Assembly: GCA_014874305.1 (NCBI GenBank)
Contig: JACWAO010000028.1
Location: forward strand, 1-28,716
Origin: Candidatus Colwellbacteria bacterium
GTDB lineage: Bacteria > Patescibacteriota > Minisyncoccia > UBA6257 > Colwellbacteraceae
Reading direction: 5' to 3'
Length of the DNA: 28,716 nt
Shown here: positions 3,654-20,202 of the stretch, one piece after another
How positions within the stretch are numbered: the first letter of the stretch is position 1
Layout of the letters: the number at the start of each line of letters is the position of its first letter
Made by a program: the position numbers and the translations under genes
The notes under the pieces: model-generated
What the model saw: only the letters and a program-made list of their open reading frames with translations
What the model was told of the DNA's origin: nothing
Databases searched by the model: none

Positions 3654-6600
3654 TTTTAGTTTTCTTACTCGCCGGGATTGTTTTTATAAGCAATAAAGCT
3701 TTGGCGTATGGTTATAACACACATGCTTATTTAACGCGGGAAACGATTAATTTTTATAACAAGAACTTTCCAGCGAAGCAGATATCGCAGGATGGCGCGA
3801 GTTTCCTGATAGACGGATCGAGGCGGGAGGATGATATACCGCGCTCGATGGATCATTTTTACGATCCGGTAAACAATAGAGGGATAACGTATGATCCTGT
3901 TATCAAAGCGACTATACCGATTCCGGGGAGCTGGCTGAACGCCAAGGAGTGGTCGCAGAACCCGGCGGCGCAGAACGAACTGACGTACAAGGTGCCGGAA
4001 ACTATAGGATCGGTACTTACCGCGATCCAGCAGAGGGACATCTCCAAGATCTCGAGCGAGACGAACTTTACCTGGCAGAAGGCGATTAACCTCTACCTTA
4101 ATGGTGATAAGAACGGCGCGATGTTCGCGCTTGGGCATGTTCTGCACTTGTTGGAGGATATGTCCGTACCGGCTCACACGCGGAACGATCCGCATCCTGG
4201 GGGAGATTCTTATGAATTTTATACTGACAGGTTTCAGTTATCGACTCCAGACAAAAACTTGTCCGCGAAAGTTGATAAATTACAGCCGGTCGGCCTAGGA
4301 GACATAAACTCCTATTTTCAATCACTAGCGACTTATACTAATAATAATTTTTATAGCGACAGCACTATTGGATTAAACAGGGGATACGCCAACCCAGAAG
4401 CAGACTTGACCAATATAGAGCCAAATGAGAATCACTTTTATATATTGGGTAACACGGACAACCAAAAATATTATTTAGCTGTTAAGAGAAGTATGTCGGC
4501 TGGAGTTTTAAGTGCTCCATCAGATATAAAAATAGATGACGATGTTGTAAAAAATTCTTACTGGAACGTGCTTTCGGCAAAATCCGTCCAGTATTCGGCG
4601 GGGGTTATTGATTTGTTTTTTAAAGAAGTATCGAAGGCGCAGAGCGATCCGGTGTACGCTAAGAATTTTAATGTCGAGCCAAAATCGTTTATAGGCCAGA
4701 TAGTTAGTTCCGTCGCCTCGTTTACCGGAACAATAAAAGATACCGCAGTCCAGGCGTTACGCCAGTTGGTCGGCGGGAATAGCGGAAACCTGGTTCAGGT
4801 GGTTGATCTTACTTCCACGAGCAGTGTGGAACACGCGGTAAGTTCAACGCCGGTGGTGCAGGGGAATGTTAAATACAAACTGCAGATTACCGAGATAATG
4901 TACAACCCCGAGGGGAGCGATGCCGGAAAGGAGTGGGTTGAGATTGAAAATCTGGATCAAGTTCCTATCGACTTAACCAGGCTAACCCTGCGAGTTGATG
5001 GGTCAAATCATAAAATTAATAAATCATCCGGCTCTTCTTTACTGCCGCCTGGCGGGTATGCGGTTATAGCCGACGACCAGGCGACGTTTCAATCCTTATT
5101 TCCATCTTATTCGGGTATTTTGGCAGACAGCGCAGTATCGCTCAAGAATTCCAGCGGTAAAATAGAGACGCTGAACGGGGACGTTTTATTGGATGGCGTC
5201 ACTTATTATTCGGATTGGGGAGGAAACGGAGATGGCAACTCCCTCCAGCTTATAGGCGGCCAATGGCTTGCCAGTACACCGACCCCGGGCGCGGCTAACA
5301 AGATCGCGTTTGTACCTTCAAAGCTCAAAATCCCGCCCGGGGAAGGCGAGACTACGGCGGTTCCCGCTATGGAGGCGACGTCGACAAAACCCGCGTCTAC
5401 ATCAACCGGCGATTCGGAGAATAAACGAAAACAACAGACAACTTCTACTTCCCCGGTTGCGCAAATTTGCTCTTTTGCGGATTCCGGCGCATCGGGCTAT
5501 CATAGTGTCATCTTTAATGAGGTCGCGTGGATGGGGAGCGTTAATAGTGCCAATGACGAGTGGATAGAACTTAAAAACATCTCTAATTCCGCGGTCGATA
5601 TTTCCGGATGGCATGTTTTAAGCGGAGACGGGCATATCAAGGCAATCCTGCCGGAGAGGGCCGTTATTTCTCCGTCTGGTTTTTACTTACTGGAGAGGAC
5701 GAACACAAATTCGATTCCAGGCGTGACCGCCGATTTTGCCTATACCGGAAGCCTGGTAAATACCGGAACTGATCTGAAGCTTTTTGATAATAACTGTGCG
5801 TTAGTCGATAGCGTGAGTGGAGCGAACGGATGGCTGGCGGGAGATTCTTCCTTAAGGAGAACTATGGAGCGCGATCTTAACGGGAACGGGTGGCACACAT
5901 CAAATGCTGTGGGCGGTACTCCGAGGAGAGAGAATGATTCGGCGTTCCTCTCTCAATCCGGAGGCGGGGGAGGCGTGGTTATTTCTCAATCGCCAGCTCT
6001 TAATAACCAAGATACTCAGGAGACGAGCACGCCGGTTGTTTATCTGAAACTATTGATAACGGAGGTTCAACTGGCCTCGTCGAGCAGTACGAAGGATGAG
6101 TTCGTGGAGATTTATAACCCGAACGATACGGAACTGGACCTGACCGGCTGGTCAGTGATGAAGAAAACAAAAACCGCCGACTCGTTTTCTACGTTCGCCA
6201 AGGCGGACCTGTTCGATGGGAAGTTGATCAAGTCAAAAAGTTTTTTAGTTATCGCCAATTCAGAGGGCGGCGTTAGTGGAGACATTTTTACGACTTATGG
6301 CGTATCGGAGGACAACTCCATGGCGATCAAGAACCCGAACCACGAGGTTGTCGATAAAGTTGGTTGGGGAGAGGCGGGGGATTGCGAGGGAATGTGCGCG
6401 CCTCAGCCTACAGACGATAAAAGCATTGAAAGGAAGGTGGAAAACGGCGAGTTTACGGATAGCGGAGATAATTTTTCAGACTTCGAAGTTGGCGAGTGTC
6501 CGCACCCGGGCGCTTACTCGTTGACTTGCGCGGGCACAACGTCGACCGCCACCTCGACCGATATGACGACAGCGTCTTTGCCGTTAATGAGCGGCTTCTC

Positions 6601-8344
6601 CGCGAGCTACAACCCCAATGATTTAAAAATATCCCTGAGTTGGGAGCCGTTTGTTCCCGCCTCTACGGCGAGCACTGGTACGGAGGAAACGGCGACCAGT
6701 ACGGTTGAACCGCGGGTTTTTTACACGGTTCAGCTTTCCACGTCGACCTCCTTGGATGAAGTGGCGTGGGAGAGCGATTATATAAGTAACGCGTTAGTTA
6801 CGCCAACCTCTTCTACGAGCACCAGCTTGCGGATAGACGAGGTCGGCAGGGGTTATGGGTTTAGAGTCGCGGCCTTGGATGAAAACGGGACGGCGCTGGC
6901 CGAGGCGACTTCCAGTGTTAATGTGCCGAGCCTTTTATCCAGTTTGAACTTTTATCCTGATCCGAGAAGCGGGAACGACGCGTATTTGATTGATGTGTTT
7001 TACCAGGGGATACCGTTTATTCCTCCCTTGTGGAGCGGAACGTCCGGAACCCAAACCAACTGGAGGCTTATGGCTTTCTATCTGGATACCGAAGCTAATA
7101 AGCCAGAGTATTTTAACGTATCAACAAGCAGTTTTAGTGTTAAATACCAGAGTTGCGGCGGTGCTCAGGTATCCGCTCCGTCTATTGTTTTTCCTAGCGG
7201 ATTATGCGAGTACGGACCGTACTCCCAGGATGTTTCTCTGGCAATGCTTGAGGACCCGACCCACATCCTGCTTTCCTCGGCGCTCTCGGTTTCCGGCCTC
7301 AACCTCTCTACCAGTAGTTTTATTACGGTTGCTTATTACGATCGCGACCCCGACGTCTTTGGCGACAGGAGGTTTAAGCTGGTGGCCGTAGACCGCGATC
7401 GTTATTATCTTCAGGATTTGAGTCTGGAAGAGGTACAAAATCTTCATTCCGCCCCGGAGTTTTCGTCCGCGTTTACAGCCCAGTTCAAGCCGGACAGTTC
7501 CGCGCTGGTCGTGAGTTGGGATCCGGCTCATGACACCGACAGTTGGGACGGCTCTATTAGTTACGAGATAAACATTTCTCCCGCGGCTGGTATTGACGAT
7601 TCGCTTTGGCAGGCTCTCGTTCCGGAGCCGAGGGCGGACTTCTCCGATCCCCAGCACATGAGTTACAGATATTCCAGATTCGCGAATATCGGCGATGATT
7701 TTGCGATCGCCCTCAGAGCCAAAGATGAGTTTGGCAAGTCTAGCGCGGTAACGACCTCGACTTGGCAGTATCCGGCGACGGACATTGCAGTATCTCAGGA
7801 GCAGTGGAACGGTGAGTGGGGAAGCGGGTTTGGAAGCATCGATTCGCACCTGAACTTTTCCGCTCCGGACTCCGCGAGCTTAGAGAAGATATCGTCATCA
7901 AGCGCGGTGTTGTTTGATAAGTTTACCGTTAAGGTAAGGCAGAATGGAATCGGGGGATACGCGCCGAGCGATTTGAGGTTATCCATATACGCGGACGCGA
8001 GCGGAACTCCTGATTTTTCTAGCCCGCTTGGGGAGAGCGTAATCAGGAACTTGGATCCGCTTTCTGATCCGCAGGATATAACTTTTAGTTTTGCCTCTCC
8101 CGTAACTCTGCTGGCTGAGAGCGGCGGTTGGGCGGTGCTGGATGTCGCTGGTTATGGCGGACTGCAGGGATACTTCAATAATTCTTGGCAGAACGCGGTT
8201 ACGAGCGGCGACTTGTATTCCGGCGGAGATTCGGGATTCGGATCGGGACGAGGCACCAACAGTGATTGCAGTCAGTGCGCGTTTGGCGGATACGCTCCTA
8301 GCGGGGTAGACTGGTATATGAAACTTGGTCTGACTAAGCTATAA
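3632..8344 (+). CDS. Large secreted protein: Zn-dependent phospholipase C/S1-P1 nuclease domain, three lamin-tail domains, S/T-rich linkers, C-terminal beta-sandwich (Fn3-like) region
   Basis: Signal peptide ending ALA|YGYNTH; HFYDP; LGHVLHLLEDMSVPAH (H-x3-D-x5-H). LTD motifs: ITEIMYNP..EWVEIEN, IFNEVAW..DEWIELKN, LITEVQ..DEFVEIYNP. Confidence 0.8.
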   Translation: MESRRYVVLVFLLAGIVFISNKALAYGYNTHAYLTRETINFYNKNFPAKQISQDGASFLIDGSRREDDIPRSMDHFYDPVNNRGITYDPVIKATIPIPGSWLNAKEWSQNPAAQNELTYKVPETIGSVLTAIQQRDISKISSETNFTWQKAINLYLNGDKNGAMFALGHVLHLLEDMSVPAHTRNDPHPGGDSYEFYTDRFQLSTPDKNLSAKVDKLQPVGLGDINSYFQSLATYTNNNFYSDSTIGLNRGYANPEADLTNIEPNENHFYILGNTDNQKYYLAVKRSMSAGVLSAPSDIKIDDDVVKNSYWNVLSAKSVQYSAGVIDLFFKEVSKAQSDPVYAKNFNVEPKSFIGQIVSSVASFTGTIKDTAVQALRQLVGGNSGNLVQVVDLTSTSSVEHAVSSTPVVQGNVKYKLQITEIMYNPEGSDAGKEWVEIENLDQVPIDLTRLTLRVDGSNHKINKSSGSSLLPPGGYAVIADDQATFQSLFPSYSGILADSAVSLKNSSGKIETLNGDVLLDGVTYYSDWGGNGDGNSLQLIGGQWLASTPTPGAANKIAFVPSKLKIPPGEGETTAVPAMEATSTKPASTSTGDSENKRKQQTTSTSPVAQICSFADSGASGYHSVIFNEVAWMGSVNSANDEWIELKNISNSAVDISGWHVLSGDGHIKAILPERAVISPSGFYLLERTNTNSIPGVTADFAYTGSLVNTGTDLKLFDNNCALVDSVSGANGWLAGDSSLRRTMERDLNGNGWHTSNAVGGTPRRENDSAFLSQSGGGGGVVISQSPALNNQDTQETSTPVVYLKLLITEVQLASSSSTKDEFVEIYNPNDTELDLTGWSVMKKTKTADSFSTFAKADLFDGKLIKSKSFLVIANSEGGVSGDIFTTYGVSEDNSMAIKNPNHEVVDKVGWGEAGDCEGMCAPQPTDDKSIERKVENGEFTDSGDNFSDFEVGECPHPGAYSLTCAGTTSTATSTDMTTASLPLMSGFSASYNPNDLKISLSWEPFVPASTASTGTEETATSTVEPRVFYTVQLSTSTSLDEVAWESDYISNALVTPTSSTSTSLRIDEVGRGYGFRVAALDENGTALAEATSSVNVPSLLSSLNFYPDPRSGNDAYLIDVFYQGIPFIPPLWSGTSGTQTNWRLMAFYLDTEANKPEYFNVSTSSFSVKYQSCGGAQVSAPSIVFPSGLCEYGPYSQDVSLAMLEDPTHILLSSALSVSGLNLSTSSFITVAYYDRDPDVFGDRRFKLVAVDRDRYYLQDLSLEEVQNLHSAPEFSSAFTAQFKPDSSALVVSWDPAHDTDSWDGSISYEINISPAAGIDDSLWQALVPEPRADFSDPQHMSYRYSRFANIGDDFAIALRAKDEFGKSSAVTTSTWQYPATDIAVSQEQWNGEWGSGFGSIDSHLNFSAPDSASLEKISSSSAVLFDKFTVKVRQNGIGGYAPSDLRLSIYADASGTPDFSSPLGESVIRNLDPLSDPQDITFSFASPVTLLAESGGWAVLDVAGYGGLQGYFNNSWQNAVTSGDLYSGGDSGFGSGRGTNSDCSQCAFGGYAPSGVDWYMKLGLTKL

Positions 8345-9318: not shown

Positions 9319-9326
9319 CAGAAGAT

Positions 9327-9842
9327 ATGACGCTCGGAATAATCATCATCGTTTTAGTACTGCTTATCCTCTTGCCTACGGCGTACGCTTCATTAATTGG
9401 CGCGCCGTTCGTTCCGGCTTCCCCCTCGCTGGTGGAAATGATAGTAGATGCCGCTGATGTTAAAGAAGGAGACGTGATATATGAACTTGGAGCGGGAAAC
9501 GGGCAGGTGATGATCGCTTTCGCGAAGAGGAAAGGGGTAAAAGTTTTGGGGTTTGAATTGTCGCCGGTCTTGTATCTTGTCGCTTGGCTTAACTTAAAAC
9601 TCAAAAGACTGCGCAACTGTCATCTGTATCTTAAAAATTTTTATTCGTATCCATTGGCGGAAGCCGATGTTGTTTATTTTTTTCTTGTTCCGAGAACGGT
9701 AAATAAGCTGGCCGTTAAACTTGTCTCGGAATTAAAGCCCGGATCCAGGGTGATTTCTTACGCTTTTCCGATAGACGGCTGGGAACCGTCCCGCGTTATT
9801 AAAGAGAACGGGAAGCCGGGAATCTTTATTTATACGGTATAG
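9327..9842 (+). CDS. Class I SAM-dependent methyltransferase with N-terminal TM anchor
   Basis: GAPFVPA, YELGAGNG (motif I), GFELSP, ADVVYFFL, ELKPGSRVISYAF. Start moved to ATG 9327. Confidence 0.85.
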   Translation: MTLGIIIIVLVLLILLPTAYASLIGAPFVPASPSLVEMIVDAADVKEGDVIYELGAGNGQVMIAFAKRKGVKVLGFELSPVLYLVAWLNLKLKRLRNCHLYLKNFYSYPLAEADVVYFFLVPRTVNKLAVKLVSELKPGSRVISYAFPIDGWEPSRVIKENGKPGIFIYTV

Positions 9843-9929
9843 GCATAGGCGGGCGAGGCGTCGCTTGTCTCGGTTTTATCAAATATTGTATACTACAAAA
9901 AGTCGAATACTTGAATAAAAATTGCGTAA

Positions 9930-10952
9930 ATGCCTAAAAAGAAAGTAGCGATAAACGGGTTTGGAAGAATCGGCCGGCTGTTTTTCCGGCAGATGTTTGG
10001 CGATCCGGAAATAGAGATCGTAGCCATAAATGATTTGGGAGATATTAATAATCTGGCCTACCTCCTTAAGCACGACACGGTCTATCGAAGTTTTGGCAAA
10101 AGCGTCGAAGTAAGCGGCGGCAACCTGGTTGTTGACGGACAGACGATAAAGATACTGCAGGTAAAAGATCCGGCGCAGTTGCCGTGGAAGGATCTAGGAA
10201 TAGATGTCGCGGTGGAATCAACCGGTTTTTTCGAGGAGTTCGAGAAAGCCAAGGCTCATCTTACGGCCGGAGCTAAAAGAGTTGTGATAACGGCGCCGGC
10301 CAAGGACGCGGACGGCGTGGAGGGAAAAACCGTGCTCATGGGCGTTAACGAGGGGGAACTGCAGACGGTTCTTCTTACATCAAACGGCTCGTGCACGACA
10401 AACGCCTCCTCTCCGGTAATACAAGTCATGGCCGAGAATCCCGGGATACTCAAGGCGGTGTTGGGGACGGTGCACGGATACACATCCACTCAGTCTATAG
10501 TCGACAGTCCCGCGAAGGGGCACGACTATCGCAGGGGACGCGCGGCGGCGCAAAACATAACTCCTTCAACGACAGGCGCGGCGGTTGCCGTTACTAGAGC
10601 GATAAAAGAATTGGAGGGCAAGTTTGACGGTTTGGCTTTCCGCGTTCCGGTCATTACCGGATCAATCGCGTCGGTAACTTTTGTTGCCAAGAGAAAAACA
10701 TCGGTTGACGAGATAAACGACATCTTCCGCAAGGCTTCGGAGGAGCCGCGCTGGCACGGGATTTTGAAGGTTACCGAGGAACAGCTGGTTTCGACGGATA
10801 TAATAGGCGAGCCGTACGGAGCTATCGTCGACCTTGGTTTCACCAAAGTGGTGGACGGCGATCTGGTTAACGTTCTTTCCTGGTATGACAACGAGTGGGG
10901 ATACGTCTCGACTTTGGTTAAACACGTTAAAAGCGTCGCGGCTTTGGTATAG
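9930..10952 (+). CDS. gap: Glyceraldehyde-3-phosphate dehydrogenase, type I
   Basis: INGFGRIGR, catalytic SCTTN, WYDNEWGY. Confidence 0.97.
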   Translation: MPKKKVAINGFGRIGRLFFRQMFGDPEIEIVAINDLGDINNLAYLLKHDTVYRSFGKSVEVSGGNLVVDGQTIKILQVKDPAQLPWKDLGIDVAVESTGFFEEFEKAKAHLTAGAKRVVITAPAKDADGVEGKTVLMGVNEGELQTVLLTSNGSCTTNASSPVIQVMAENPGILKAVLGTVHGYTSTQSIVDSPAKGHDYRRGRAAAQNITPSTTGAAVAVTRAIKELEGKFDGLAFRVPVITGSIASVTFVAKRKTSVDEINDIFRKASEEPRWHGILKVTEEQLVSTDIIGEPYGAIVDLGFTKVVDGDLVNVLSWYDNEWGYVSTLVKHVKSVAALV

Positions 10953-14001: not shown

Positions 14002-14084
14002 GCCCGGGTGGCGGAATGGTATACGCGGAGGACTTAAAATCCTCTGTCTTCACAGACTTGTGGGTTCGAGTCCCACCCCGGGCA
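14002..14084 (+). tRNA. tRNA-Leu(TAA), CCA not encoded
   Basis: Acceptor GCCCGGG/CCCGGGC, anticodon arm GAGGA-CTTAAAA-TCCTC, long variable arm, TTCGAGT T-loop, discriminator A. Confidence 0.95.
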
Positions 14085-14086
14085 CA

Positions 14087-14280
14087 CTTCGACTTGCTTG
14101 ATCCGTCGTAGTCTACTACGCAGACGTAAGTGACCTTCGCTCACTCAGCGCAGGCACGCCTCAATTTAGCCTACCGAAGCTCGCAAGCGAAAGCGGCCAG
14201 GCTCAGTGTAAACACTTCGATAAACCAGTGTTAAACCACATAAGATTCTTCGTCCGCCGGTTGGCGGACTCAGAATGACG
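14087..14280. repeat. Cluster of nested short palindromic repeats 3' of tRNA-Leu
   Basis: Hairpins CGTAGT-CT-ACTACG, AGTGA...TCACT and GTCCGCC-GGTT-GGCGGAC; degenerate CTTCGA...CAGTGT(T)AAAC units; terminal AGATTCTTCG-[hairpin]-TCAGAATGAC unit shared with 921-994. Confidence 0.7.
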
Positions 14281-14309
14281 AACGAAAAAGAAACTCAGGA
14301 TACCTTACT

Positions 14310-15563
14310 TCAATGAAGTGAGAGATCCTTTAAAATCTGTCTTATCAAGTACTTTGTGTCCTCGGCGTTTTCAACAGCAACCGTATCAATTCCTGTTTTT
14401 ACAGCCGCGTAATCATTTCCTCCTTCAAATAAGGCGTCGCCGACATAAGCCATCTTATCCACTGGCACTTTTAATATTTTTGATAATTGATGTATACCGT
14501 ACGCTTTGTCTATACCTTTTTGGGTTATATCGATAGATGTTCCGCCTCCGATTCTTACTTCAAACTCCGGCAAGTATTTTTCAAGGGCTTTTTTAATTCG
14601 CTGACGGAGGCCGTTTTCCATCTCTTTCCACTTATTTTTTTCTTCAAGCGGGGCCTTCTGTCCCAAAGGAGAAAAAGTAATCTGGCTGCCGCGGTCCTCC
14701 AGCACCACGCCATAAGTTTTTTTAGGGCGGATATATTTAACGTCTTTTAGGACTTTGGAAAACGAGCTTAAAATCTTCTTTTTTTCACTTGCCGTCAAAT
14801 TGTTTTTGTATACCGCACCCCATTTTCCCTTTGATAGTTTATACAGCTCGGCTCCGGAGGTTGGCTGTGCGTAGAGATTGCGGAATGATTTCTTGGACGC
14901 TTTCTTTAATTTGTCCAGGAATTGGGTCTTAAACTGAGGAAATCCTCCGCCTCCTATAACCGAAATTGTTTTTTTATCCAGGAGCTTATGCAATATACCA
15001 GCCATTTCTTCGTCCAAGTCGCACTTGCTTAACGTTAGAGTGCCGTCCAGGTCGAATAATATTACTGATTTAGACGCGAGCAATTCGGCTTTTTCATCCA
15101 GCCGCGCGATTTTTTTGTAGTTATTAAGAAGCCAGGAGCTGGACTGAACCTTTCCGCCGTCGCCTACGTTAAAAACCATCTTGCATCCGATGCGGTTGCA
15201 GACCTCCACCTCCGGTATGTTGTCCTTGAATCTGTCTCCTCCGTTGGCAAAAACGTCGGGCTTTAGTTCTTCTAGTTCGCGGCAGACGCTCCTGTCTTCC
15301 GGATTTGGCCCGTGTTTGGTTATTATCACTTCATCTACGGAATAAATTGACTCTATTATTTCTTTTCTTTCTTTTTCATTTATGAAGGCGTACCCCTTTT
15401 TGTGTTTTAGCCAGTAGTCGTTGTTTAGGATGACTACTAGCTTGTCCCCGAGTTTTTTAGCTTCATTAAAAAGGCGGACGTGACCCATGTGAATAGGGTC
15501 GAAACCGCCGCTTACCGCGACAACAATGGGCCTGTTTTTTTTAGATTTATTTAACCCTGCCAT
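14310..15563 (-). CDS. Fusion: HIGH-type cytidylyl/adenylyltransferase domain + HAD-IIB eukaryotic-type phosphomannomutase domain
   Basis: N-terminal SGGFDPIHMGH, LVVILNND, FANGGDR. C-terminal LFDLDGT, EDRGSQITFSPLGQKAP, GGGTSIDITQKGIDKAYG, GDALFEGGNDY. Start likely ATG 15563 rather than 15620. Confidence 0.85.
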   Translation of the reverse strand: MAGLNKSKKNRPIVVAVSGGFDPIHMGHVRLFNEAKKLGDKLVVILNNDYWLKHKKGYAFINEKERKEIIESIYSVDEVIITKHGPNPEDRSVCRELEELKPDVFANGGDRFKDNIPEVEVCNRIGCKMVFNVGDGGKVQSSSWLLNNYKKIARLDEKAELLASKSVILFDLDGTLTLSKCDLDEEMAGILHKLLDKKTISVIGGGGFPQFKTQFLDKLKKASKKSFRNLYAQPTSGAELYKLSKGKWGAVYKNNLTASEKKKILSSFSKVLKDVKYIRPKKTYGVVLEDRGSQITFSPLGQKAPLEEKNKWKEMENGLRQRIKKALEKYLPEFEVRIGGGTSIDITQKGIDKAYGIHQLSKILKVPVDKMAYVGDALFEGGNDYAAVKTGIDTVAVENAEDTKYLIRQILKDLSLH

Positions 15564-15897
15564 ACTTATCTTCGTAGCGAATGATATCTTTTTCTTCAGG
15601 TTTACCGAACGCCGCTTCAAGCACCAGGGAGTCGGCGACGCCCATCATCCTGTGTTTCTCTTTCTTGTTTATTTTTACGGAATCTCCCTTACGCAAAGTA
15701 TAAAACTTCTTGCCTTTTTGCGCGCGTATCGTTCCCTTTAATACCACCCACACTTCCGATCTGTTTTTGTGGCTTTGCAGGCTCAGCTTCTCCCCCTTTC
15801 TTACGAATATCTCCTTTATCCAATAGGTCGGAAGCGTTTCTATTACGGCGTACCACCCCCAGGGTTTTAACGCTAACTTACTCTTTGCTTTTGCCAT
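15547..15897 (-). CDS. Stand-alone cupin of the type II phosphomannose isomerase C-terminal family
   Basis: KPWGWY, LSLQSHKNRSEVWVV, KHRM, EDIIRYEDKYGR-like tail (EKDIIRYEDKYGR). Confidence 0.85.
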   Translation of the reverse strand: MAKAKSKLALKPWGWYAVIETLPTYWIKEIFVRKGEKLSLQSHKNRSEVWVVLKGTIRAQKGKKFYTLRKGDSVKINKKEKHRMMGVADSLVLEAAFGKPEEKDIIRYEDKYGRVK

Positions 15898-15913
15898 GAA
15901 AGTGCGTTGGTTA

Positions 15914-17830
15914 TCAGCGCTTAACAGCGTTTAGTATGTCTTTAAGTTTTATACTGGCAACTCCGATCGTCTGATCCGCTTCGCCGTAATAGAGAAATAT
16001 TTTTTCTCCGATTAATACCGCTCCGCATGGGAAAACAACGTTAGGCGTTAACCCCTGTTTCTCATAATTTTCCTTCGGTTCGAGGAGGGGATAGTCCGTC
16101 CGGCCCAATACCACGGTTGGGTCTTGCAGATCGGTTAGTACGGCCCCGACTCTATAGGTTCCATCCTCTTCTCCAACCCCGTGGTAAATGATAAGCCACC
16201 CATCTTTTGTTTTTATAGGAGGCGCGGCCACCCCGACTTTTTTGGAATCCCACCAGCCCGGTCGAGGTCTCAGCCACCTGTACTCCTCAAGCCAGGTTGT
16301 TCCGTCAAAATCCAAAGACTTGTGGAAAGAAAGATCGATATCATCGCCACTCCGGTGAATAATGGCATACTTGCCCTTGATTTTTTCCGGGAAGACGCAT
16401 GAGTCCTTGTCGTCTATCCCGGGAGGGGAGATTAGAACCGGTTTCGACCAGTTCCATTCTTGTCTTAGGAAATCACTGTCTCTTATCCAGGTTAAGGCGA
16501 CGCGGGGAGGGTTTTTCCCGTCGAACGCGGTGTAGAACATGTATATTTTCGAGCCGATTTTTACGAGGCGCGGGTCTTCGGTTCCGGAATTTCCGCCCTG
16601 CTGGAGTTTTTGTTCAAACGGTTCGCGCGGGGTATAAACCGGATCCCTAGACCTGTAACTTATATGAACCCCATCATCGCTTTGCGCGTAGCCAAGCACC
16701 GAGGTGTTGCTTGGGGACATCGCTCTATAAACAAGGTGGACTTTGCCGTCTAGGTATATCGCGCCGGGATTAAAAACCGCTTTTGTTTCCCATGACGAGT
16801 CTTTATTGGGCGTTAAGATCGGATTTTCTTTCGCGCGAGAAAATCCGATGGAGGCGGTATCTTTCTTGAGCATGTCGCTCGTAAGCGAAGAGAGGGGTAG
16901 AAACGCTACCGAACACGTGGTGTCGGCAGAGCCGTAATATAGATAAATAAGGTCTTTTTTAAGAATGGCTCCTGACGGGAAAACTATATTGGGAACGAAT
17001 CCGTATTTCTCATAGTATTCTTCCGGCTGGAGAATAGGGAAGTTTGTTCTGCCTATGATTTTCGCTGGATTTTTTAAGTCAAGAAGAACGGCCTCTATTC
17101 CGAATACTTTTTGCGGGGAGAAGTAGTTTCTTATATAGGAATAGACAAGCAACCACCCCTCTTTCGTTTTTATTGGCGGGGCGCCGACTTCTACGTGGTC
17201 CTGCGGGCGGCGCTCCAGAGGAAGAAGGTGTTTATCGATGTTTTTGTACCAGTTTTGCCAGTACGATTCGTCCCACATTTCCTCTTCTTTATCGAAGGAG
17301 GCGAGAGATATTTTGGCGGGAGGGCGATCGGTGTTGGCGGTAAGCACGGCCCACATCTTACCGTTTATCTTTTCCGGGAATAGGGCCATCGCCTTGGCGT
17401 TAAATGGCGTTACCAAGTGTTTCTCGCTGACTTTTTTTAAGTCCTTGCTTATCGCGAGCCCGACTCTTATGCCCTCCGCCTTGGGCGGCCAGCTCGAAAG
17501 GGCGGTATAAAAAATGAAGTATTTATTGTTAAGCTTGGTAACACGCGGGTCTTCGCATCCAAACTTCTCCCAATCGTATTCTGGGATGATAAATCTTCTG
17601 CGATTGTAAAAAGAGAGGCCGTTCTTGCTTTCCGCTATCCCAATGTCGGAGACCCTAAGCCTGGACTGGGCGGAGGTATGGTAATGGGGCAGAGAGACGG
17701 CGCGATATAAGAGAAAGATTTTTTCTTCCTTGGCGATGGGGCACCCATTAAAAACCGCTTCCGCTTCCCATGATTGATCCGGATTTGGTTTTAGTATGGG
17801 ATTCGTCTCGAATCGTTTAGCGAGCATCAC
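15914..17830 (-). CDS. Tandem two-domain GH130-family (beta-mannoside phosphorylase-like) protein
   Basis: Two repeats of NPIL.P...WE..AVFN, EDPR, FPEKI.G, APPIKTK.GW, P...YE..G..PNVVFP.GA, YYG.AD. Confidence 0.88.
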   Translation of the reverse strand: MMLAKRFETNPILKPNPDQSWEAEAVFNGCPIAKEEKIFLLYRAVSLPHYHTSAQSRLRVSDIGIAESKNGLSFYNRRRFIIPEYDWEKFGCEDPRVTKLNNKYFIFYTALSSWPPKAEGIRVGLAISKDLKKVSEKHLVTPFNAKAMALFPEKINGKMWAVLTANTDRPPAKISLASFDKEEEMWDESYWQNWYKNIDKHLLPLERRPQDHVEVGAPPIKTKEGWLLVYSYIRNYFSPQKVFGIEAVLLDLKNPAKIIGRTNFPILQPEEYYEKYGFVPNIVFPSGAILKKDLIYLYYGSADTTCSVAFLPLSSLTSDMLKKDTASIGFSRAKENPILTPNKDSSWETKAVFNPGAIYLDGKVHLVYRAMSPSNTSVLGYAQSDDGVHISYRSRDPVYTPREPFEQKLQQGGNSGTEDPRLVKIGSKIYMFYTAFDGKNPPRVALTWIRDSDFLRQEWNWSKPVLISPPGIDDKDSCVFPEKIKGKYAIIHRSGDDIDLSFHKSLDFDGTTWLEEYRWLRPRPGWWDSKKVGVAAPPIKTKDGWLIIYHGVGEEDGTYRVGAVLTDLQDPTVVLGRTDYPLLEPKENYEKQGLTPNVVFPCGAVLIGEKIFLYYGEADQTIGVASIKLKDILNAVKR

Positions 17831-18945
17831 TTTTTCTTCGCCTTTCCGGTTTTAAACGCCGGCTTTTCTCCTTTCATCAGTTCCGAGAGAAAAGTTTCTA
17901 AGTTCGCATAAGCAACACTAACATAATTATCGGCCGCGCCATAGTAGACGAAGAGCTTTCCGTCTTTGATGACCGCGCCCGACACGTAAACTATTCCGGC
18001 TTTGAACCCGTTGTTTTCGTACTCTTTTTCTGGTTCGAGAACGGGCTCTGGAGAGCGATAAAGGATTTTAGACGGGTCGTTTAAATCTAAGAGTATCGCG
18101 CCAACCTTGTATTTTCCCGGGTCGTTCTTATCCATTGCGTGGTAGAATAACAGCCACCCCTCTTTCGTTTTTATTGGCGGGGCGCCGGCTCCTCTTATCC
18201 AACTTTCCCAGCGCTTTTTTTCTCCATTCGTGCCGTCGTGACGGCTTCTGATATAATCATCGTCTTTAAACTCTAAAGTATCTCTGTACTCGATAAGTAT
18301 TTTGGGAGTTATGCTGTGCAGTATAGCGTACCGGCCGTTTATTTTTTCCGGAAAAATTACCCAGTTTTTATGCGTTTCCCCCGGAGGGGAGATTAAGACC
18401 GGAGGACTCCATCTCCAGCGCTTGTTAAGCATGTCCTCCTCGCTTATATGCGTGAGCGCGACTCCCAGTCCATCATCGCAGGCGGTATAGGTTACGTATA
18501 GAATCCCCTCGTTTTCCATATTGGTTATGCGCGGATCCTCACTGCCGCCGAAGCTTCCCCCCGAGGCAAAAGAATATGGATTAAAAACACGTTTATTAGT
18601 AAGTATGTGTTCGTAAACAGGATAATGGAGCCTTTCACTTATTACTAGGCCGTTCTCTGAAGAGGCGTATCCAAAGCGGGAGATTCCGTCGTCTCCTATG
18701 GCGCGGTATAAAAAGTGTACCTTATCTTTAATGAGAGCCGCGCCAGGATTGAATGTTTGCCACGCTTCCCACGAGTTTTCCGCGGACGGAGAAATAATCG
18801 GGTTCGCTTCCGGCTTGGATAACTTGATCGGGCTTATCTTTTTTTCGCTTCTGACAACTATCTTAGATCTTGTCCTTACAGTCTTTCTTGGGGCGGTTTT
18901 TCTGGAGGTATTCCCTTCTTGTTTTTTTACGGACTGCCTGGGCAT
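17827..18945 (-). CDS. Single-domain GH130-family protein with basic N- and C-terminal tails
   Basis: TFNPGA, GSEDPRIT, HKNWVIFPEKINGRYAILH, GAGAPPIKTKEGWLLFYH, YYGAAD; ATGA coupling to the next gene. Confidence 0.88.
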   Translation of the reverse strand: MPRQSVKKQEGNTSRKTAPRKTVRTRSKIVVRSEKKISPIKLSKPEANPIISPSAENSWEAWQTFNPGAALIKDKVHFLYRAIGDDGISRFGYASSENGLVISERLHYPVYEHILTNKRVFNPYSFASGGSFGGSEDPRITNMENEGILYVTYTACDDGLGVALTHISEEDMLNKRWRWSPPVLISPPGETHKNWVIFPEKINGRYAILHSITPKILIEYRDTLEFKDDDYIRSRHDGTNGEKKRWESWIRGAGAPPIKTKEGWLLFYHAMDKNDPGKYKVGAILLDLNDPSKILYRSPEPVLEPEKEYENNGFKAGIVYVSGAVIKDGKLFVYYGAADNYVSVAYANLETFLSELMKGEKPAFKTGKAKKK

Positions 18946-19173
18946 TTACTTATATTATTAACTACGTGTTCCGTGGAGCGGGTGTATTTTATGTGCAAAC
19001 CACGACTGTTTTGTTCGTTACCGGCGGTTTCTAATCTGGAGGTTCTTTCATAAGAATAATACTACTTGCCGCGCATTAAACAAGAACAGCATCTGTTAAT
19101 AACTTTAGGGGATAGAGCCTAAGAATAACCGCAGACTTTTCTTTATTATAAGCTTCTGGTAAAAGGTATGTAG

Positions 19174-20202
19174 ATGATAATCTGGTCCATTGAGACATCG
19201 TGCGACGAGACGGCAATCGCGGTTGTTAAAGCAAGCGGGGGATTGAGTAAACCGAAATTCGAGGTGCTGACAAGCGTTGTCTCCTCGCAGATTGCGGTTC
19301 ACCGGCCGTTTGGCGGAGTCGTGCCGAATTTGGCCAAAAGGGAGCATCTTAAAAATCTTCCGATCTTGCTCCAAAAACTTGCCAAGGAGGGCTTTGATAT
19401 TAAAAAAGCGGACACTCTCGCTGTTACCGTCGGGCCGGGCCTGGAACCGGCGCTTTGGACCGGCGTTAATTTCGCCAAGGAGCTGGCTAAGAAGTATAAG
19501 AAACCGTTAACCGGGGTAAACCACTTGGAGGGGCATATCTACAGCTTTCTTCTTTCAAAGAGCGCGGGGCGCCTAGAGTTAAAGGATATTTTTCCGGCGG
19601 TTGCGCTTCTTGTAAGCGGAGGACACACCTTAATTTTAAAGATGGACTCTTTAACGAAGTGGAAGAAGATGGGTGAGACGAGGGATGACGCGGTGGGGGA
19701 GGCGTACGACAAGGTTGCCCGTCTTTTGGATCTCCCATACCCGGGAGGTCCGGAGATAGAAAAAGCGTCGAGTTTGGGAAACGGGGAGGCCGTATCCTTT
19801 CCGAGGCCGATGATCGATCAGAAAAATTACGACTTCAGCTTTTCGGGATTAAAGACGGCGGTTCTTTATTATCTCCGCGACCACCCCGTTAAAACGGAAA
19901 AAGACCGGGCCGATGCGGCGGCATCTTTTGAAGAAGCGGCGGTAGAGGTTTTAGTCAAAAAAACAATACGCGCCGCTATGGACGTGAAAGCCAAGGCGGT
20001 TATTATTTCCGGAGGCGTTGCGGCCAACAAGCGCTTGCGCGAGGAACTTAAAAGCGCCGCTAAAAAGAATAAAATAAAATTTTTCGCTCCGGAGATGAAG
20101 TTCAATACCGATAACGCGGCGATGGTCGCGGCCGCGGCCTATCTTGCCAACTTGCGCGGGAGGAGAAGAAGGATAACGGCGCAAGCCAATCTGACTGTCT
20201 AG
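19174..20202 (+). CDS. tsaD: tRNA threonylcarbamoyladenosine (t6A) synthesis protein TsaD
   Basis: IETSCDETA, VNHLEGH, LLVSGGHT, TRDDAVGEAYDKVAR, DFSFSGLKT, TDNAAMVA. Confidence 0.95.
   Translation: MIIWSIETSCDETAIAVVKASGGLSKPKFEVLTSVVSSQIAVHRPFGGVVPNLAKREHLKNLPILLQKLAKEGFDIKKADTLAVTVGPGLEPALWTGVNFAKELAKKYKKPLTGVNHLEGHIYSFLLSKSAGRLELKDIFPAVALLVSGGHTLILKMDSLTKWKKMGETRDDAVGEAYDKVARLLDLPYPGGPEIEKASSLGNGEAVSFPRPMIDQKNYDFSFSGLKTAVLYYLRDHPVKTEKDRADAAASFEEAAVEVLVKKTIRAAMDVKAKAVIISGGVAANKRLREELKSAAKKNKIKFFAPEMKFNTDNAAMVAAAAYLANLRGRRRRITAQANLTV

Follow-up and report, generated by a model that had tools for sequence, protein, structure and literature searches.

What do bacteria with genomes of about 0.6 Mb do with some 4.6 kb of genes for mannose phosphates and beta-mannosides: harvest mannosides from outside, or make and break their own? 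The question is raised by a 28,716-nt stretch of DNA (the window) from a Candidatus Colwellbacteria bacterium (Patescibacteriota; GenBank assembly GCA_014874305.1, contig JACWAO010000028.1, forward strand), in which four open reading frames (ORFs) lie on the minus strand at 17827-18945, 15914-17830, 15547-15897 and 14310-15620. Pfam searches placed one PF04041 (GH130) domain in the 372-aa product of the first gene (P0004; module s) and two in the 638-aa product of the second (P0003; modules A and B), PF01050 in the 116-aa product of the third (P0002; phosphomannose isomerase, PMI, cupin), and PF01467 followed by PF03332/PF08282 in the last (P0001; a nucleotidyltransferase, NT, joined to a HAD-type hexose-phosphate mutase). 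These ORFs, domains and their tight junctions agreed with an original prediction, made from the DNA letters, of four tightly coupled genes at 14310-18945, and its idea of a coherent, self-contained mannose-phosphate and beta-mannoside unit was supported. The operon is a conserved, ordinary metabolic unit, which departs from the closest characterised system, the Thermoanaerobacter type, in three ways: its three GH130 modules are differentiated, it lacks uptake genes, and its PMI, mutase and NT are non-canonical. As to its purpose, we tentatively favour a self-made cytoplasmic beta-1,2-mannoside that would be built and broken down in a cycle, over salvage.

The GH130 modules and their phosphate pockets

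Membership of GH130 was clear, with PF04041 scores of 355 bits in two stretches for P0003 and 139 bits for P0004 (cut-off 26). All PDB matches of the three modules were GH130 proteins, and the closest solved relatives of s, A and B were Teth514_1788 and Teth514_1789 (GH130_6; PDB 9fj8 and 7fip). The match was strongest for module B (E value of 2.5e-64 to Teth514_1788, PDB 9fj8), followed by A (9e-48) and s (1.5e-46). With NF052550, the equivalog model for beta-1,2-mannobiose phosphorylase, B, A and s scored 274, 204 and 188 bits against a cut-off of 450; the whole of P0003 reached 471 bits, an apparent pass only, because this score sums two domains. Scores with NF058598, the BT3780-type beta-1,2-mannosidase model, were 101-122 bits (cut-off 550).

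Published criteria for the family name a proton-donor Asp (UhgbMP D104) and a phosphate-binding pair, R168/H231 (PMC7660257); the beta-1,2 signature of the +1 subsite consists of Arg59, Glu (for Tyr103), Lys (for Arg150) and Asp304 (PMC7660257, PMC4599007). Residue numbering was fixed on an alignment to Uhgb_MS (K184, R202, R242), in which R202 occupies the UhgbMP R168 position; judged by its spacing from the catalytic Asp, this column is also that of the GT108 'switch' residue (Arg150 in MTP4, His161 in MTP2). Residues were surveyed in 13 arrays first (HMMER/MAFFT alignments) and then in approximately 77 species. The EDPR motif was present in all three modules, and the catalytic Asp was invariant in the orthologues of s (77), A (75) and B (80). 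All four beta-1,2 +1 subsite residues were likewise invariant in s, A and B.

The phosphate ligands differed sharply between the modules. Module B retained the Arg in 80/80 orthologues and the His in 77/80. In module s of the window, a Ser ('LHS') stood at the R168 position and the basic residue was displaced by one ('WESWIRG'); among its orthologues, the Arg was replaced by Ser, Asn, Gly or Ala in 70/77, the His was kept in 68/77, and an Arg was displaced to one position past the Lys/Arg242 column in 70/77. Module A of the window had Thr for Arg inside a conserved 'LT.NTD.PP' insert, Ser for His and Phe for Tyr. Both phosphate ligands were absent from all 75 A orthologues, with Ser, Thr or Ala at the Arg column, which lies in a conserved five-residue insert of loop L2; Phe replaced the pocket Tyr in 74 of them. 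Module A also carried an invariant Glu ('DHVEVG') two residues past the Lys/Arg242 column, with His at that column. The L2 loop was short in s and B. The published Arg/His pair was thus found in B and in neither s nor A. Three GH130 domains had been predicted correctly, but their description as three phosphorylases was not supported, because only module B keeps the pair.

Work on related enzymes gives these losses a meaning. The R202A substitution in Uhgb_MS lowered phosphorylase activity 16-fold, and enzymes in which the L2 loop is short and phosphate is contacted at only three points act as transferases, their phosphorylase activity being low or absent (PMC12814180). A change of Arg to His abolishes phosphorylase activity in the GT108 background (PMC10913872), and carboxylates in place of the basic ligands convert GH130 phosphorylases into hydrolases (PMC4599007). 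From these residues we infer that module B is a beta-1,2-mannoside phosphorylase; module s is a poor phosphorylase and possibly transferase-like, and module A is non-phosphorolytic and most likely hydrolase-like. The idea that s is a transferase using nucleoside diphosphate (NDP)-mannose alone was weakened, in that mutase domains fuse specifically to the Arg-less s type; s may therefore still use mannose 1-phosphate (Man-1-P).

A predicted route from fructose 6-phosphate to activated mannose

The cupin scored 71.4 bits with PF01050 (cut-off 23.6) and contained the PWG and QxH...E.W motifs, showing that it is a member of the type II PMI family; isomerase activity is predicted. The HAD domain scored 60.6 bits with PF03332 (cut-off 22.4) over profile positions 2-220 of 221, and its catalytic motifs, DLDGT and GD..EGGND, were intact. 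Its best PDB match was the Lactococcus lactis alpha-phosphoglucomutase 4bnd at 115 bits, compared with 78 bits for the best phosphomannomutase (PMM), 5ue7. The L. lactis enzyme is reported to be glucose-specific. The PMM label of the original prediction therefore holds for the PF03332 family and the HAD motifs, but not for the nearest solved relative. Neither an alpha-D-phosphohexomutase nor any PF02878 gene was found in the genome (98.6% complete), so that the HAD domain is the sole candidate for linking mannose 6-phosphate to Man-1-P. Genomic context, namely fusions of such mutases to the PMI cupin and to GH130 and the lack of another mutase, favours PMM activity. Dual activity towards glucose and mannose phosphates is possible and would fit the favoured cycle too.

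The NT domain matched PF01467 (51.2 bits, cut-off 21) and contained an HxGH motif (HMGH). It scored 74.6 bits with RfaE domain II (TIGR02199, cut-off 181.5) and 54.1 bits with TagD (TIGR01518, cut-off 165.4), its nearest equivalogs, indicating that it is an orthologue of neither heptose-1-phosphate adenylyltransferase nor glycerol-3-phosphate cytidylyltransferase. No PF00483 nucleotidyltransferase was detected anywhere in the same genome, despite five GT4 matches. Among 401 sampled genomes of Patescibacteria species, a ManC-type gene (full-length match, E <= 1e-20) was present in 225. None of these was among the 49 genomes with a strong NT match (E <= 1e-17), compared with 225 of the 352 others; Fisher's test gave 4e-20 for this exclusion, a value that overstates the evidence since relatives are not independent. 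The same complementarity was seen within mixed families (f32, f40, f65, f70, f112, f27, f61 and f24). As a control, genomes with weak NT-like matches only, presumably to other HIGH-family paralogues, contained ManC in 24 of 32 cases. NT was complementary to the ManC type and not to PF00483 as a whole, as two genomes (G195 and G101) have PF00483 but no ManC type.

Gene positions agreed with this pattern. In one genome (G226; L033 5027-7616, minus strand) a canonical ManC, PF00483 with the ManC beta-helix, was located directly upstream of s and A-B, and in another (G143) NT and the PMI cupin formed one protein that mimics bifunctional ManC. In the former, an FGGY sugar kinase together with the ManC occupied the place of NT and mutase. 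ManC or NT was present in 51/56 genomes with GH130 and in 223/345 others. We propose that NT is a candidate mannose-1-phosphate nucleotidyltransferase, working like ManC from outside the ManC family. The original prediction had left this domain without a role, which the evidence now supplies, putatively, as a ManC analogue. A dedicated part of the GH130 system it is not: NT orthologues occurred mostly in genomes without GH130, so the NT-mutase pair looks like a general source of activated sugar to which the GH130 genes are attached.

Two further contexts of NT were observed. An HNH endonuclease domain (PF01844/PF14279) preceded the PF01467 and PF03332 domains of an NT-mutase protein of 532 aa (P0055). 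In two genomes that lack GH130, stand-alone NT orthologues had NUDIX hydrolase genes as neighbours (L014:1919-2377 and L023:684-1202), which may encode NDP-sugar pyrophosphatase partners.

Conservation across Patescibacteria and layout in the window

GH130 was present in 56 of the 401 species, and at least 13 had the array of three domains, in which a double of approximately 640 aa follows a single GH130. Reciprocal best matches were position-specific: the first gene matched s, the N-terminal half of the double matched A, and the C-terminal half matched B. Using a mutase-GH130 fusion as the query, we scanned species genomes and obtained 80 named loci in Nomura-, Zambryski-, Giovannoni- and Harrisonbacteria, Saccharibacteria, Paceibacterota and others, and the check on conservation across the candidate phyla radiation (CPR) that had been suggested with the original prediction thus gave a strong result. 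The commonest layout, on a single strand, was NT, mutase, PMI, s and A-B. In loci with enough downstream sequence, A-B followed s immediately in 65/72 and was present somewhere in 71/72. Where at least 3 kb was available upstream of s, the PMI cupin was found there in 37/58 loci, a mutase (PMM type or a second HAD type) in 33/58 and NT in 24/58; the PMM counts are biased by the query, and those for NT, PMI and A-B are not. Because the same gene set forms an operon in some 80 other Patescibacteria species, the block in the window is far beyond chance.

Clusters of the double GH130 numbered more than 120, with 66-77% identity, all from CPR bacteria and annotated as hypothetical; domain A was found in 212 representative clusters (E <= 1e-30). 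Fusions were frequent. The NT-mutase fusion of the window occurred in at least 60 clusters, s-A-B formed a single 1110-aa protein, and mutase-GH130s, mutase-NT-PMI, PMI-mutase and NT-PMI proteins were also seen. The order in the window (s, A-B, PMI, NT-mutase) is a variant; G195 also has its NT-mutase after the array. The four genes are therefore a rearranged, partly fused local copy of the Patescibacteria-wide operon of NT, mutase, PMI, GH130s and GH130A-B. In a genome of the same genus (G363), neither GH130 nor the NT-mutase query found a match, showing that the unit is accessory. Recurrent flanking genes in the 80 loci were housekeeping genes (Fmt, Def, HisRS, LepB, Pth, MsrA and similar), and no transporter, depolymerase, transferase, binding protein or other partner was conserved in the flanks. 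The operon genes are at present annotated as 'hypothetical' or 'GH43/DUF377', and the searchable literature on CPR bacteria mentioned GH130 genes in their genomes only in passing.

Variation around the array took several forms. The PMM-type mutase was replaced at the same position by another HAD protein (Hydrolase_3/Cof-like, approximately 250 aa) in 9/58 loci, for example L034:8279-9028 and L088:5684-6448; this protein is perhaps a phosphatase or a mutase of a second type. In L036-L042 (e.g., L040:4263-6137) the first gene was itself a double of approximately 625-640 aa. Its N-terminal extension of about 280 aa had no Pfam match; a mutase was considered and rejected, and the extension is a degenerate GH130-like propeller without EDPR, giving four propellers per array. 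Major facilitator (MFS) genes adjoined the array in two genomes only. In one of these (G218, L040), an MFS transporter gene (6130-7350, minus strand) and a GH63 mannosylglycerate-hydrolase-like (MGH1-like) gene (9320-10675, plus strand) lay beside the array, possibly indicating a connection with mannosylated compatible solutes. Six contigs with the operon (L058, L062, L069, L073, L076 and L094) were labelled Nitrososphaeria, Gammaproteobacteria or Pseudomonadales, reflecting either mis-binning or transfer of the operon.

Module s begins with a polybasic tail. In 65 orthologues the median length of this tail was 57 aa, Lys and Arg made up 0.41 of its residues and the net charge was +21; its composition was conserved in the s genes of L049-L128 and its sequence was not. 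Other lineages have a mutase domain or the degenerate fourth propeller at this position. The tail may bind membranes, nucleic acids or polyanions. No signal peptides were found in the operon proteins.

The remaining features of the window locus are listed in Table 1. The start of the double GH130 gene is most likely the ATG at 17827, giving 637 aa and matching P0125, and that of the last gene the ATG at 15563, giving 417 aa and matching database record P0005. The s and A-B genes are joined by TGATG with one base in common, A-B and PMI are separated by 16 nt, and the PMI and NT-mutase genes overlap by 17 nt. All other sizeable genes of the window are on the plus strand. Since the remaining minus-strand ORFs are shadows of plus-strand genes, the block is the sole real multi-gene unit in that orientation, as had been claimed. 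Domain search of the window proteins found no transporter, GH5 or GT4 within the block, and the stated lack of a transporter thus held. The GC skew reverses across 14-19 kb. One flank contains tRNA-Leu (14002-14085) and RpiB and the other a divergent TsaD; GAPDH and RpiB genes are near the operon. Seven promoter-like sites were found, compared with 5.8 expected in shuffles, giving weak support to the one upstream of s. The hairpin past the last stop was not called by the terminator scan and is possibly a terminator or a REP-like element; further palindromic stretches lie beside it in the 224-bp spacer (14086-14309) between tRNA-Leu and the end of the operon.

Table 1. Features of the mannose operon and its borders, in window coordinates
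Feature	Position	Strand	Basis or remark
Promoter-like site TCTACA-18-TATAAT, 10/12	19145..19174	-	About 200 nt upstream of first gene; consensus match only
GH130 module s (P0004, 372 aa)	17827..18945	-	Pfam and residue alignment
Polybasic N-terminal tail of module s, about 41 residues, Lys/Arg-rich	18823..18945	-	Not a signal peptide
GH130 module A (N-terminal half of P0003)	16856..17830	-	Pfam and residue alignment
GH130 module B (C-terminal half of P0003, stop included)	15914..16855	-	Full beta-1,2-mannoside phosphorylase signature
Stand-alone type II PMI cupin, 116 aa	15547..15897	-	PF01050; KPWG and SLQSH..RSEVW motifs
HIGH-class (cytidylyltransferase-fold) nucleotidyltransferase domain (NT)	15084..15563	-	PF01467; HMGH motif
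HAD-IIB hexose-phosphate mutase domain, eukaryotic-PMM type, stop included	14310..15083	-	PF03332; DLDGT motif
7-bp GC-rich hairpin GTCCGCC aacc GGCGGAC	14252..14269	-	About 40 nt past last stop; no T-run

Competing readings and known systems

In the cycle that we tentatively favour, the PMI cupin would interconvert fructose 6-phosphate and mannose 6-phosphate, the HAD mutase would interconvert mannose 6-phosphate and alpha-mannose 1-phosphate, and NT would convert Man-1-P into NDP-mannose, feeding the GT4 transferases of the genome as well. From Man-1-P, NDP-mannose or both, the cell would build short cytoplasmic beta-1,2-manno-oligosaccharides and later dismantle them, using them as a buffer of carbon and mannose. 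Module B would perform reversible phosphorolysis; module s, in which L2 is short and one phosphate contact is missing, would act mainly as a transferase or primer enzyme; and module A, with its phosphate pocket lost and a Glu gained, would carry out hydrolase-like trimming. The three would act as one complex. We lean towards an endogenous substrate given the lack of a conserved transporter or depolymerase, the lack of signal peptides, and a near-exclusion with glycogen phosphorylase: a glycogen-phosphorylase-type gene was present in 1/56 GH130 genomes and in 56/345 others (p ~0.002 before correction for kinship). The presence of ManC or the putative ManC analogue NT, and with it a predicted capacity for NDP-mannose synthesis, in 51/56 GH130 genomes points the same way. 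Neither a GT35 nor a GH13 gene was found in the Colwellbacteria genome. A GT5-plus-GT4-type (glycogen-synthase-like) gene encoding 415 aa was observed there, outside the window (G000:C28:4646-5779). The division into modules with and without phosphate ligands parallels the Leishmania arrangement, and we lean the same way on this account. A full counterpart of mannogen is rather doubtful, that is, an intracellular beta-1,2-mannan reserve with s as synthase-like transferase, B as phosphorylase, A as hydrolase-like enzyme and the HIGH-class NT displacing ManC.

Several points weigh against a self-made cycle. GH130 phosphorylases are usually catabolic, and we know of no report of beta-1,2-mannan in Patescibacteria. 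In many genomes, neither NT nor a mutase adjoins the GH130 array. The fusion of the mutase to s suggests that s handles Man-1-P and not NDP-mannose alone, and the displaced Arg in s may restore phosphate binding. The nearest solved relative of the mutase is a phosphoglucomutase. The phyletic statistics ignore relatedness, all operon activities are predicted, and the direction of flux cannot be read from sequence. Patescibacteria may also import substrates by other routes. Further, the closest characterised cluster, that of Thermoanaerobacter, was interpreted as salvage (PMC4264767), and GH130 transferase activity may have no physiological role, according to the authors of PMC12814180.

Salvage is accordingly a serious possibility, held a little more loosely than the cycle. 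Beta-1,2-mannosides of a host or the environment would enter by an unlinked route and be degraded by the three modules, with B acting on longer chains, s on short chains, and A hydrolysing what phosphorolysis cannot remove. The Man-1-P released would pass to fructose 6-phosphate for glycolysis, or through NT to NDP-mannose for glycans, with a saving of ATP. This reading has a precedent in a cluster with two GH130_6 phosphorylases and ManC (PMC4264767) and is consistent with the closeness of all three modules to the Thermoanaerobacter enzymes. The mutase-GH130s fusions point to Man-1-P as the common metabolite; GAPDH and RpiB genes are nearby, and two genomes have MFS genes adjoining the array. 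Some surface polysaccharides of bacteria contain beta-1,2-linked mannose (PMC12814180). However, no transporter, GH5-type depolymerase or binding protein was conserved in approximately 80 loci, unlike in Thermoanaerobacter, and pure phosphorolysis leaves the strongly conserved loss of phosphate ligands in two of the three modules unexplained. Groundwater and sediment habitats have no known sources of beta-1,2-mannan.

It is unlikely that the substrate is a mannosylated molecule other than a mannan, for example a glycolipid, glycoprotein or beta-mannosylated compatible solute belonging to the cell or its host, each module having its own aglycone. The GH63 and MFS genes beside the array in G218 fit such a substrate, the polybasic tail of s could tether the protein to anionic membranes or nucleic acids, and no single module reached the NF052550 cut-off. 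However, the +1 subsite residues typical of Man-beta-1,2-Man enzymes (Arg, Glu, Lys and Asp) were invariant in all three modules across ~77 species, and the GH63 neighbour was seen in one genome only. Less probable still is that the NT-mutase serves glucose (glucose 6-phosphate to glucose 1-phosphate to NDP-glucose) as a mere neighbour of GH130 and PMI: the mutase's closer match to phosphoglucomutase, the GT5-type glucan-synthase-like gene in a genome with no other hexose-phosphate mutase, and the predominance of NT in genomes without GH130 speak for it, but fusions connect the mutase with GH130s and both NT and mutase with the PMI cupin, the complementarity of NT is strictly with ManC-type genes, and the PMI and GH130 products would be unusable without PMM activity, there being no other mutase.

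The operon recurs, unusually well conserved, in many Patescibacteria lineages despite the small size of their genomes. It offers a natural experiment in how a single propeller fold is adapted to phosphorylase, transferase or hydrolase chemistry, a question that work on GH130 and GT108 has approached only through mutants and ancestral reconstructions. New here are the strict NT/ManC complementarity, the exchange of NT for ManC in G226, and a mutase closer to phosphoglucomutase than to any PMM. NT is a candidate for a new class of NDP-mannose-forming enzyme, and because annotation pipelines miss it, the genomes that bear it seem to lack the means of activating mannose. Should the mannoside prove to be made by the cell itself, these bacteria, thought to be almost without reserves, would have a carbohydrate for storage or buffering. 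A mannogen-like reserve, if true, would give a physiological role to GH130 transferase activity, so far a possible curiosity.

The precedents named with the original prediction were confirmed, both the Thermoanaerobacter GDP-mannose cluster (PMC4264767) and the common fold of Leishmania GT108 (PMC10913872, PMC12814180). In Thermoanaerobacter sp. X-514, Teth514_1785-1796 combines two GH130_6 phosphorylases with ManC, a GT4, a GH5 and an ABC transporter and was interpreted as a salvage route to GDP-mannose; Teth514_1788 is a beta-1,2-oligomannan phosphorylase and Teth514_1789 a beta-1,2-mannobiose phosphorylase (PMC4264767). The CPR operon shares with it cytoplasmic GH130 paralogues of the same clade, several side by side, and a genetic link to a nucleotide-mannose-forming enzyme, here putative. 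It differs in having no ABC transporter, GH5 or GT4; in having three modules instead of two, two of them fused and one with a complete phosphate site; and in including PMI and a mutase, with an unrelated HIGH-class NT in place of ManC.

The mannogen system of Leishmania (MTP1-7, GT108; PMC10913872 and the study by Sernee et al. that it cites) is also an array of paralogues with the same five-bladed propeller fold. Its enzymes act on beta-1,2-mannan, as the CPR modules are predicted to do. GT108 enzymes without the phosphate-pocket Arg have transferase activity only, and s and A are also without this Arg; mannogen is a cytoplasmic polymer that needs no transporter, and the CPR operon has none either. 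However, the families differ (GT108 and GH130), and the Arg is replaced by His in Leishmania and by Ser, Asn, Gly or Thr here. Uhgb_MS and Teth514_1788 (PMC12814180) are beta-1,2-specific GH130 enzymes with the same Glu/Lys subsite pair and, like s and B, a short L2 loop that permits a nucleotide-sugar donor. They keep all phosphate contacts, and their weak transferase activity is of uncertain relevance (PMC12814180), whereas the CPR operon has conserved paralogues with lost contacts alongside putative NDP-sugar synthesis. Module A resembles the GH130_3 enzymes BT3780 and BACOVA_03624 (PMC4599007) in lacking the basic phosphate ligands, keeping the beta-1,2 Lys, and having gained a carboxylate near the phosphate pocket, as judged by its position in the sequence. 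Unlike these enzymes, it has no signal peptide; the BT3780 type has Glu at the basic-ligand positions (E227/E268), whereas module A has Thr at Arg168 and its Glu elsewhere. Module A comes from a GH130_6-like clade, scoring 204 bits with the phosphorylase model and 101 with the BT3780 model.

The supply enzymes would perform the same three steps (isomerase, mutase and nucleotidyl transfer) as bifunctional ManC, or type II PMI-GMP (TIGR01479), together with ManB. The CPR cupin and the PMI domain of ManC are homologues, and the NT-cupin fusions mimic the architecture of ManC. However, NT has the PF01467 fold and not PF00483 (with PF22640), and the mutase, unlike ManB, belongs to the HAD superfamily and not to that of the alpha-D-phosphohexomutases. 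The CPR mutase domain aligned over its full length with L. lactis PgmH (4bnd) and eukaryotic PMM1/PMM2, sharing their HAD-IIB fold and cap and their DxDxT and GD..(G)GND motifs; unlike in those enzymes, the mutase domain is here fused to NT.

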